From the IMG/VR virus record IMGVR_UViG_648276671_000011: a DNA stretch of 4,392 nt; one strand, written 5' to 3'. The stretch's first letter is position 1, and the number at the start of each line of letters is the position of its first letter. Shown here piece after piece: positions 1 to 4,392 of this stretch. Below the pieces are notes generated by a model, which saw nothing but the letters and a program-made list of their open reading frames with translations, did no database searches and was not told the DNA's origin. Source of the DNA: a virus (Duplodnaviria; Heunggongvirae; Uroviricota; Caudoviricetes). The position numbers were made by a program, and so were the translations under genes.

Positions 1-149
1 AATCGAAATCGACACCGAAAAATAAAACATCAAGTCATATCAATATATTGCATTGGTGGTGATGACGAATAAAAATGCAAAAACTAGCCTTTTTCCGCGA
101 TGCTCCCGCCCCGTGGCAGGGCACCCCACAAGGAGGACCCGCCATCACT

Positions 150-1629: not shown

Positions 1630-3906
1630 ATGCTCAATCAAGAACTGGAACTCAGTTTAAATATGGCTTTCGCCAGAGCGCGCGAGCACCGTCATGAGTT
1701 TATGACCGTCGAGCACTTGTTACTGGCGCTGCTCAGTAACCCATCTGCCCGGGAGGCGCTGGAAGCGTGTTCTGTGGATTTGGTTGCGCTCCGTCAGGAA
1801 CTGGAAGCCTTTATTGAACAAACCACACCCGTTCTGCCTGCCAGTGAAGAGGAGCGCGACACACAGCCGACGCTGAGTTTTCAGCGTGTACTGCAACGTG
1901 CGGTCTTCCATGTCCAGTCCTCCGGTCGCAATGAGGTTACCGGTGCAAACGTTCTGGTCGCTATTTTTAGCGAACAGGAGTCGCAGGCGGCATATCTGTT
2001 GCGTAAACATGAAGTCAGCCGTCTCGATGTGGTGAGCTTTATCTCTCATGGCACGCGTAAAGACGAGCCGACACAGTCTTCTGATCCTGGCAGCCAGCCA
2101 AACAGCGAAGAACAAGCTGGTGGGGAGGAACGTATGGAGAATTTCACGACGAACCTGAATCAGCTTGCGCGCGTGGGAGGAATCGACCCACTGATTGGTC
2201 GTGAGAAGGAGCTGGAGCGTGCTATTCAGGTTCTCTGCCGTCGCCGTAAAAACAACCCGCTGCTGGTGGGGGAATCTGGTGTCGGTAAAACCGCGATTGC
2301 GGAAGGTCTTGCCTGGCGAATTGTTCAGGGCGATGTGCCGGAAGTGATGGCTGACTGTACGATTTACTCTCTCGATATCGGTTCTCTGTTAGCGGGCACA
2401 AAATATCGCGGCGACTTTGAAAAACGTTTTAAAGCGTTGCTCAAGCAGCTGGAGCAGGATACTAACAGCATCCTGTTTATTGATGAGATCCACACCATTA
2501 TCGGTGCGGGTGCAGCCTCTGGTGGCCAGGTCGATGCGGCTAACCTGATCAAACCGCTGCTCTCCAGCGGTAAAATTCGCGTAATTGGTTCGACAACCTA
2601 TCAGGAGTTCAGCAACATTTTCGAGAAAGACCGTGCTCTGGCGCGTCGCTTCCAGAAAATTGATATTACTGAACCGTCGATCGAAGAAACTGTTCAAATC
2701 ATCAATGGCCTGAAACCGAAGTATGAAGCGCACCACGACGTGCGTTATACCGCAAAAGCGGTGCGTGCAGCGGTAGAGCTGGCGGTGAAATACATTAACG
2801 ATCGTCATCTGCCGGATAAAGCCATTGACGTTATCGACGAAGCGGGCGCTCGCGCACGCCTGATGCCGGTAAGCAAACGCAAGAAAACCGTTAATGTGGC
2901 GGATATTGAGTCCGTGGTGGCCCGTATTGCGCGCATTCCAGAGAAGAGTGTTTCGCAGAGTGACCGCGATACCCTGAAAAACCTCGGCGATCGCCTGAAA
3001 ATGCTGGTCTTCGGTCAGGATAAAGCCATTGAGGCGCTGACTGAAGCCATTAAGATGGCGCGTGCAGGTTTAGGTCACGAACATAAACCGGTCGGTTCGT
3101 TCCTGTTTGCAGGCCCTACCGGGGTCGGGAAAACAGAGGTGACGGTACAGCTTTCGAAAGCTTTGGGCATTGAGCTTCTGCGCTTTGATATGTCCGAGTA
3201 TATGGAACGCCATACCGTCAGCCGTCTGATTGGTGCGCCTCCGGGATACGTTGGTTTTGATCAGGGCGGTTTGCTGACTGATGCGGTCATCAAGCATCCA
3301 CATGCGGTGCTGCTGCTGGACGAAATCGAGAAAGCGCACCCGGACGTGTTCAATATTCTGTTGCAGGTGATGGACAACGGTACGCTGACCGATAACAACG
3401 GACGCAAAGCGGACTTCCGTAACGTGGTATTGGTGATGACCACCAACGCTGGGGTACGAGAAACTGAGCGTAAATCGATTGGTCTTATCCACCAGGACAA
3501 CAGTACCGATGCGATGGAAGAGATCAAGAAGATCTTTACGCCGGAGTTTCGTAACCGTCTCGACAACATTATCTGGTTCGATCATCTCTCCACCGACGTG
3601 ATCCATCAGGTAGTGGATAAATTCATCGTCGAGTTGCAGGTTCAGTTGGATCAGAAAGGTGTTTCTCTGGAAGTGAGCCAGGAAGCGCGTAACTGGCTGG
3701 CCGAGAAAGGTTACGACCGGGCAATGGGCGCACGTCCGATGGCGCGTGTCATCCAGGACAACCTGAAAAAACCGCTCGCCAACGAACTGTTGTTTGGTTC
3801 GCTGGTGGACGGCGGTCAGGTGACGGTTGCGCTGGATAAAGAGAAAAATGAGCTGACTTATGGATTCCAGAGTGCACAAAAGCACAAGGCGGAAGCAGCG
3901 CATTAA
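1630..3906 (+). CDS. clpA: ClpA, ATP-dependent Clp protease ATP-binding/unfoldase subunit (two AAA+ modules), 758 aa
   Basis: Translation from ATG1630 ([24 protein letters not shown]...) matches E. coli ClpA as recalled. Walker A motifs GESGVGKT and GPTGVGKT are present. GGAGG at 1619..1623 sits 6 nt upstream of ATG1630; the ORF-track start at 1615 is a TTG and is less likely. Confidence 0.97.
2122..2136 (+). promoter_or_regulatory. clpA: Internal ribosome-binding site GGGGAGG (2122..2128) plus in-frame ATG (2134..2136, Met169) for the shorter ClpA65 form
   Basis: SD-like GGGGAGG 5 nt upstream of internal Met169 codon (seen). Internal initiation at Met169 producing a truncated ClpA is established for E. 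coli ClpA. Confidence 0.6.
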
Positions 3907-3930
3907 TCTGATTGTCAGGTAGGTTGGTGA

Positions 3931-3969
3931 AGTCCGTAATCTCGAAAGAGGTTACGGACTTTTTGTTTG
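3931..3969 (+). terminator. Rho-independent terminator of clpA: 13-bp stem AGTCCGTAATCTC / GAGGTTACGGACT (one T-G pair), GAAA loop, then TTTTTGTTTG
   Basis: Hand-paired hairpin starting 25 nt after the clpA stop, followed directly by a T-rich tract. Confidence 0.75.
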
Positions 3970-4118
3970 TAGGCTGGGGCGGTGAAAACCCTATTTTTGG
4001 AGGTGAAGGTAAGTTGTTGATAATTAATGGTGCTGGAAGGTAAGAATAAAAAAGGGTGGCAGCAGGAAAATGAGATGGTTTTGCTTTATTAATAACGGAC
4101 TAAACGTGTAGTATTTGA
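3970..4118 (+). promoter_or_regulatory. AT-rich putative CRISPR leader
   Basis: ~150 bp AT-rich segment immediately 5' of the intact repeat; the degenerate repeat is at the far end, consistent with leader-to-array polarity on the + strand. No promoter hexamers confidently assigned. Confidence 0.4.
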
Positions 4119-4206
4119 GTTCACTGCCGTACAGGCAGCTTAGAAAGCCAACCGAAAGAAAAACTCGATTTTTATACCGTTCACTGCCGTACAGGCAGAT
4201 AAAATG
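4119..4206 (+). CRISPR. Orphan type I-F mini-array: repeat 1 (4119..4146, GTTCACTGCCGTACAGGCAGCTTAGAAA), 32-bp spacer (4147..4178, GCCAACCGAAAGAAAAACTCGATTTTTATACC), degenerate terminal repeat 2 (4179..4206)
   Basis: 28-bp repeat with the Cas6f-type hairpin core CTGCC-GTACA-GGCAG matches the E. coli/Yersinia I-F repeat consensus from memory. Second copy is identical for 20 nt then degenerates. Spacer length of 32 is typical. No cas genes in the window. Confidence 0.85.
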
Positions 4207-4208
4207 CG

Positions 4209-4244
4209 AAAAAAAAACTCGTACTTTCGTACGAGCTTTTCTTT
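4209..4244. terminator. Bidirectional intrinsic terminator: A9 (4209..4217), 7-bp stem CTCGTAC / GTACGAG with TTTC loop, then CTTTTCTTT (4236..4244)
   Basis: The hairpin is flanked by an A-run on one side and a T-run on the other, so it can terminate + strand (CRISPR) and - strand (tRNA side) transcription. Confidence 0.6.
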
Positions 4245-4249
4245 AAATA

Positions 4250-4267
4250 TGGCGGTGAGGGGGGATT
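4250..4267 (-). pseudogene. 3'-terminal fragment of a tRNA-Ser(GGA)-like gene (acceptor 3' strand plus part of the T-arm); the rest of the tRNA is not present downstream
   Basis: TGGCGGTGAGGGGGGATT is the reverse complement of ...AATCCCCCCTCACCGCCA, the 3' end of E. coli tRNA-Ser (serW/serX type) as recalled. From 4268 the sequence no longer follows the tRNA, and no complementary acceptor 5' strand (CCTCACC on +) is found in the next 125 nt. Confidence 0.5.
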
Positions 4268-4392
4268 GACTCGCTTCGCTCGCCCTGCGGGCAGCCCACT
4301 CACTGTGTTCGTGGTCTGTCCAACTGGCTGCGCCAGTTGTCGAACCCCGGTCGGGGCTTCTCGATCCCCCCTGGAGTGCAATATGCGAAAAA

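Follow-up and report, generated by a model that had tools for sequence, protein, structure and literature searches.

An orphan type I-F CRISPR mini-array downstream of clpA in Escherichia coli carries a single spacer matching csy3

In Escherichia coli, the active type I-F CRISPR-Cas loci of LF82 and UTI89 (CRISPR4.1 and CRISPR4.2) comprise 9-15 repeats, with six cas genes adjacent and another array on the far side of serW. The I-F system of this species is constitutively active, and its PAM is GG on the complementary strand at the leader-proximal end, which reads 5'-CC in spacer sense (PMC3506596). A second kind of locus is formed by orphan arrays, which sit between clpA and serW with a leader, an I-F repeat and a degenerate terminal repeat, have no I-F cas genes, and carry a spacer whose match, flanked by the cognate PAM, lies in such a gene (Almendros, Guzman, Garcia-Martinez & Mojica, Nat Microbiol 2016). 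This locus is the orphan CRISPR4 of Mojica and the CRISPR3 "anti-CRISPR" of Touchon & Rocha (2010), who found Cas1, Cas3 and Csy2 as targets in a survey of 51 genomes, proposed an anti-CRISPR role for the cas-matching arrays and argued that they are under selection (PMC2886076). According to the account of Almendros 2016 given in PMC8616872, expression of native orphan arrays is constitutive, and the arrays act by interference against plasmids that bear I-F cas genes and also prime spacer acquisition. Mini-CRISPR arrays borne by viruses have also been described, in which one spacer is accompanied by a full and a truncated repeat and Cas proteins are supplied in trans (PMC8616872).

Here we describe an array of the orphan kind in a 4,392-nt stretch of DNA (the window), which is E. 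coli chromosome. It has the site, leader, I-F repeat and degenerate terminal repeat of the orphan CRISPR4 arrays, is likewise without I-F cas genes, and has a spacer matching an I-F cas gene beside the cognate PAM, but its target is csy3 rather than one of the genes reported in the 51-genome survey. The K-12 mini-array between clpA and serW agrees with it in architecture (two repeats, one spacer), flanks and terminal repeat; the K-12 spacer, however, is TTCACAGGTAACATACTCCACCCGCCCACCAT, which is directed against cas1f, matching it on the opposite strand beside a CC PAM with 2-3 mismatches. K-12 also differs by a G-to-A mutation in the stem of repeat 2 and by having no RtT-like unit between array and serW. 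With the active LF82/UTI89 locus the window shares the repeat, the leader, the clpA-proximal position, the 60-nt periodicity and the CC/GG PAM, whereas it holds one spacer and no cas genes. Its layout and reliance on Cas in trans recall the virus-borne mini-arrays; those sit on viruses, whereas the window array is chromosomal, vertically inherited and aimed at cas genes. A full-text search of the open-access literature, which did not cover Almendros 2016, did not find the spacer sequence. Published work on orphan arrays had been invoked in a sequence-only reading of the window, and could be traced to Touchon & Rocha 2010 (PMC2886076) and, through what PMC8616872 reports of it, to Almendros et al. 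2016.

That reading had placed a two-repeat array at 4119-4206 and quoted its 32-nt spacer, and these coordinates and this spacer proved exact (Table 1). A repeat search found that the 20 nt at 4119-4138, GTTCACTGCCGTACAGGCAG, recur without change and in direct orientation at 4179-4198, a spacing of 60 nt, so that the periodicity of 28 + 32 nt is exact, with repeat starts at 4119 and 4179. Rfam CRISPR-DR4 (RF01317) matches 4119-4146 with 50.1 bits (gathering score 35, E 6e-11), and this repeat, of the I-F (CRISPR-4 / Ypest) type, is identical to the repeats of the arrays flanking cas1f-cas6f in the I-F-positive strain 025542-1 (locus L004), where the clpA-proximal array uses the exact 28-nt sequence. 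Both copies had been taken for I-F consensus repeats, a description that fits repeat 1 and fails for repeat 2, which is a degenerate terminal repeat identical to repeat 1 at 23 of 28 positions. CRISPR-DR4 scores 29.7 bits at 4179-4206 (E 1e-4), under its gathering score, because the last 8 nt are ATAAAATG and not CTTAGAAA. Degeneracy of the last 8 nt is typical of terminal repeats, and a terminal repeat of this type is also found in K-12-type orphan arrays.

Table 1. Features of the array and its flanks in the window.
Feature	Coordinates	Strand	Evidence or remarks
clpA intrinsic terminator hairpin	3929..3962	+	Stem of 15 bp, then a run of T; conserved in every aligned relative
CRISPR leader, AT-rich, ~155 nt	3963..4118	+	Alignment with the K-12-like locus
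Repeat 1, full type I-F repeat GTTCACTGCCGTACAGGCAGCTTAGAAA	4119..4146	+	Rfam CRISPR-DR4
Single 32-nt spacer GCCAACCGAAAGAAAAACTCGATTTTTATACC, anti-csy3 (Cas7f)	4147..4178	+	Match to the csy3 coding strand
Terminal degenerate repeat	4179..4206	+	First 20 nt intact, last 8 nt ATAAAATG
Bidirectional intrinsic terminator hairpin	4209..4244	.	Terminator-like on either strand; forms in the MFE fold

In repeat 1, the Cas6f hairpin CUGCC-GUACA-GGCAG is followed by the 8-nt 5' handle CUUAGAAA. Repeat 2 keeps the hairpin and the Cas6f cleavage site within its first 20 nt, and CUGCC/GGCAG stem-loops form in both repeats in the predicted RNA fold. Repeat 2 is predicted to suffice to supply the 3' hairpin of the single crRNA. 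Since the leader is intact, one repeat is full, the spacer has 32 nt and the 20-nt hairpin is present, exactly one complete crRNA precursor is encoded, laid out as 5' handle, spacer and 3' hairpin. Two further likenesses to the spacer were seen in the window and set aside. Positions 4153-4167 in the spacer (CGAAAGAAAAACTCG) and 4207-4221, where the downstream terminator starts (CGAAAAAAAAACTCG), form an A-rich near-repeat of 14/15, which is probably due to chance, because by our own count the full spacer agrees there at 19/32 and no PAM is present. The sequence at 784-798, TCGATTTTTTATACC, resembles the 3' end of the spacer, but is short and needs an indel, and was treated as chance.

The terminator upstream of the leader sets clpA transcription apart from the CRISPR leader, while the hairpin at 4209-4244, conserved upstream of serW in K-12-like and I-F-positive loci, is common to the array and the convergent serW/RtT-like transcription unit. 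The leader of the window aligns with the K-12-like leader, which the I-F-positive strain 025542-1 also carries (L004, 3161-3316); the leaders of L004 and of K-12-like strains both end in ...AACGTGTAGTATTTGA directly before repeat 1. On this alignment, the segment at 3963-4118 is a homologue of the leader that serves the active array next to clpA in I-F-positive strains. The window has a divergent leader allele, with 18-26 differences in 157 nt against four other carriers of the same spacer, a small and biased sample of strains picked for their variable arrays, so that the comparison of leader and array divergence is an anecdote only. A simple scan, uninformative in itself, found no strong sigma-70 promoter in the leader.

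The only ORFs of the window with NCBIfam matches are clpS (1279-1599) and clpA (1630-3906), both matched at equivalog level, and no cas genes were found, as the sequence-only reading had stated. It had also named the clpA-infA interval as the home of the E. coli I-F system and expected cas-less strains to retain a short array there, and both points hold. The interval carries cas1f-cas6f flanked by two arrays in 025542-1 and UTI89 (L005), in the shared order clpA, array, cas1f, cas3f, csy1, csy2, csy3, cas6f, serW (tRNA-Ser), second array, infA; a short array without cas genes is kept in TUM1886 and in K-12-like strains. TUM1886 is the closest relative, matching the whole window at 99.0% with an identical spacer, and its flanks of 12 kb in each direction are free of cas genes. 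Downstream of the array, serW and infA come after one or two RtT-like units in relatives, and JCH8249 and TUM1886 have an integrase island there, followed by serW and infA. The array of the window adjoins no cas genes, which makes it an "orphan" and leaves the assignment of its repeat family unaffected. Its junction (repeat, ATAAAATGCG, terminator) does not correspond to a simple deletion of the operon as it stands today. PGAP left the mini-array unlabelled ("none") in all the records sampled.

The array has mobile and repetitive neighbours on both sides. Window positions 1 to ~1178 are the right end of a ~10-kb phage-satellite-like island between yljB and clpS, with the att core ATGATAGTTATCTATCAT at both island junctions; this segment differs from the cspD-yljB-clpS intergenic region of K-12, to which homology resumes at ~1179. 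In relatives, the island encodes an integrase, an Icd-like protein, a DUF927 or primase gene and a small terminase subunit, and that of F374 adds major capsid and head-decoration genes and so resembles a PICI that forms capsids. The island's final ORF (75-491, +, 138 aa) belongs to phrog_1561, of unknown function, and contains a perfect hexanucleotide microsatellite, (CCATGA)x9.3 at 157-212, encoding a run of Met-Thr dipeptides. Alignments of the whole window to relatives come in 2-3 pieces, which might reflect differences in (CCATGA) copy number. At the other end, an RtT-like element at 4250-4385 (-) scores 44.9 bits against RF00391 (gathering score 45), with the next unit starting at 4386. 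The element opens with the serW 3' end (TGGCGGTGAGGGGGGATT) and then diverges, and ARAGORN found no tRNA in the window. The unit of terminator hairpin, serW 3' fragment and RtT-like body occurs once or twice in tandem in relatives, before the true serW or an integrase-bearing island, and is absent from K-12-like strains.

The spacer matches the coding strand of csy3. The L004 protospacer (12001-12032) agrees at 30/32 positions, with mismatches at spacer positions 26 and 29, and that of UTI89 also at 30/32, with mismatches at 2 and 23; the best protospacer, at 31/32, is found in Escherichia whittamii and Escherichia sp. E1V33, where the mismatch is at position 2. The E. whittamii target is Csy3 (TIGR02566 equivalog, 444 bits), and the protein is 94% identical to that of E. 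coli. The protospacer encodes RQPKEKLDFYT, Csy3 residues R288-T298, and all mismatches between spacer and csy3 lie at synonymous third codon positions. CC stands directly 5' of the protospacer in L004, L005, L013, L019 and L021, and the base at -3 of the flank gives a GGC motif, which supports interference in E. coli (PMC3506596). Chance matches were found in 0 of 100 dinucleotide shuffles of L004. When the 32-mer was searched by blastn against 5,426 complete E. coli genomes, it returned the array itself, csy3 and weak IS3 matches (E ~2), and a degenerate scan that took a single genome from each species detected the motif at 16 loci. No 32/32 protospacer in a csy3 context was found in metagenome contigs, and 31/32 was the best in species-representative genomes.

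The sequence-only reading had raised the possibility that the spacer is directed against a cas gene, and proposed to look for a flanking PAM and to search phages and plasmids. A csy3 match of 30-31/32 with an adjoining 5'-CC bears this out, and the phage and plasmid searches gave no significant target: the best blastn matches in phages and true plasmids reached at most 26 nt with E ~1 or worse. The sole full match in the plasmid collection was to a 4.9-Mb record, evidently a chromosome, and viral contigs gave no match in a degenerate scan for the csy3 motif. The csy3 alleles differ from one another by 5-11% overall, with a mean of 1.8-3.2 differences per 32-nt window, and one or two mismatches to the spacer are therefore ordinary allelic divergence. 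Escape mutation in csy3 was considered as well; the mismatches per protospacer window (1-4) are within the gene-wide range and give no evidence for it.

To place the array among its relatives, four orphan arrays were compared: those of the window, a K-12-like strain, VG888-46E9 and F374. All 8 of their distinct spacers match, with 0-6 mismatches, cas1f, cas3f or csy3 of L004/L005, and the PAM is CC throughout, except for one TC in one allele; the window array thus belongs, as one variant, to a coherent family. The site holds 2-5 repeats in relatives, with different cas-matching spacers. VG888-46E9 (L003, 14212-14477) and F374 (L006, 19082-19289) are cas-less and have 4-5 repeats at this site, every spacer matching cas1f or cas3f with a CC PAM. 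In VG888-46E9 a 33-nt cas3f spacer is duplicated in tandem, and the K-12 cas1f spacer is also present in a copy shortened to 28 nt. Two spacers of F374 match cas3f of strain 025542-1 at 32/32, and the F374 array is overlain by a PGAP "hypothetical protein". In repeat 2 of the K-12-type array (L002, 3273-3292), CAGACAG replaces CAGGCAG and one pair of the Cas6f stem is broken, whereas the hairpin of the window is intact; the K-12 array may be less processable through this break.

Of the 5,426 complete E. coli genomes, 253 have the mini-array with 100% identity over its 88 nt, and about 410 (~7.6%) carry it with no more than 3 differences, a figure read from the position in the ranked match list. 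The exact spacer is present in 380 genomes. The csy3 protospacer occurs in ~240, of which the UTI89 type is the commonest allele (about 200). At E<=1e-3, a threshold that leaves out the IS3 noise, the array spacer or csy3 protospacer turns up in 653 genomes, at 655 places in total, and at most two genomes can therefore have both. The two genomes with two significant places could reflect duplication of the locus or rare strains with spacer and csy3 together. This mutual exclusivity is partly trivial, because an I-F system with the spacer would target itself and exclusivity would be expected whenever I-F is active, whatever the model; it is consistent with a barrier to I-F uptake and does not discriminate. 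Among carriers, the spacer varies by A5G, T19C and C31T, repeat 1 by C6T, which keeps a G-U pair, and repeat 2 by C5T, and such drift between strains is compatible with relaxed constraint.

These data argue with fair confidence for an orphan, cas-less I-F array of the kind retained between clpA and serW in most E. coli lineages, in this case a csy3-directed variant that would act as a barrier to I-F uptake. The barrier function of this particular spacer we infer from the published work on sister arrays. The array would be transcribed from its own leader and would stay inert while Cas proteins are absent. If a mobile element imported an I-F cas operon, the incoming Cas6f would process the resident transcript, Csy1-3 would assemble on the crRNA, the complex would bind the protospacer in the csy3 gene being brought in, and Cas2-3 would degrade the incoming DNA. 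Imperfect matches would also trigger primed spacer acquisition, and the net effect would be that an active I-F system could not establish itself. The seed of I-F spacers comprises positions 1-5, 7 and 8. The L004-type csy3 allele, mismatched at positions 26 and 29, should be open to direct interference, and the UTI89-type and E. whittamii alleles, mismatched at position 2, are more likely to elicit priming than interference. Against a barrier stands the finding that metagenome contigs and species-representative genomes gave no perfect protospacer and that the best, at 31/32, is mismatched at seed position 2; direct interference against the commonest csy3 allele, the UTI89 type, may be weak and dependent on priming. 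It is conceivable, although we think it doubtful, that the csy3 spacer represents a distinct anti-cas lineage, with its nearest target in Escherichia other than E. coli, which records and polices the transfer of I-F systems between species. Direct interference would then act only on the rarer L004-type allele, with priming against the common UTI89 type. This arms-race reading is weakened because the divergence of csy3 already explains the mismatches.

The main rival to the barrier model is a neutral relic, in which an ancestral I-F system would have taken up a self-targeting csy3 spacer, autoimmunity would have selected for loss of the cas genes, and the array would persist without function. 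This scenario is reportedly due to Diez-Villasenor et al. in 2010. It would also account for the cas matches of every orphan-array spacer, and it is in keeping with the point mutations that segregate in the spacer and repeats among carriers, the stem-breaking G-to-A change in repeat 2 of K-12-type arrays, the failure to find an exact target today in metagenome contigs or species-representative genomes, and the lack of a strong promoter in the simple sigma-70 scan of the leader. [quoted passage not shown] Native orphan arrays have, moreover, interfered with I-F plasmids in the experiments that PMC8616872 relates. In the genomes themselves, 88 nt are identical in 253 carriers although the leader of the window differs at 18-26 of 157 sites from those of four other carriers (a small, biased sample), and the orphan junction is not what a simple deletion of the present-day operon would leave. 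On balance, we regard a functionless relic as unlikely.

Two other explanations fare much worse. Spacers of active E. coli I-F arrays mostly match plasmids (PMC2886076), and the spacer of the window could by analogy serve ordinary phage or plasmid immunity, its likeness to csy3 being incidental. The phage and plasmid matches of at most 26 nt (E ~1 or worse) and the empty scan of viral contigs speak against this, as does a csy3 match of 30-31/32 with a PAM, mismatches that are all synonymous and no counterpart in 100 shuffles; the csy3 match and the absent mobile-element target effectively refute this very improbable reading. That the locus is no CRISPR at all, and the 20-nt direct repeat a product of chance or part of the serW/RtT repeat structure, might be suspected from the presence of just two copies, the lack of PGAP annotation in the sampled genomes and the repetitive RtT-like neighbourhood. 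Against this, CRISPR-DR4 scores above its gathering score, the 28 + 32 periodicity is exact, cas-linked arrays at this locus have an identical repeat behind the same leader, and relatives hold 2-5 repeats at this site with different cas-matching spacers. The CRISPR-DR4 match, the identity with cas-linked repeats and the spacers of the sister arrays refute a chance repeat, which has scarcely any probability left.

The anti-cas orphan array is thus a known type of locus (Touchon & Rocha 2010; Almendros et al. 2016), and csy3 as the target gene is possibly the sole new detail. In the barrier reading that we prefer, a chromosomal CRISPR remnant appears to immunise the bacterium against gaining the matching CRISPR-Cas system, which confirms a known phenomenon. 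Arrays of this kind may affect the introduction of I-F systems or I-F-based tools into E. coli.
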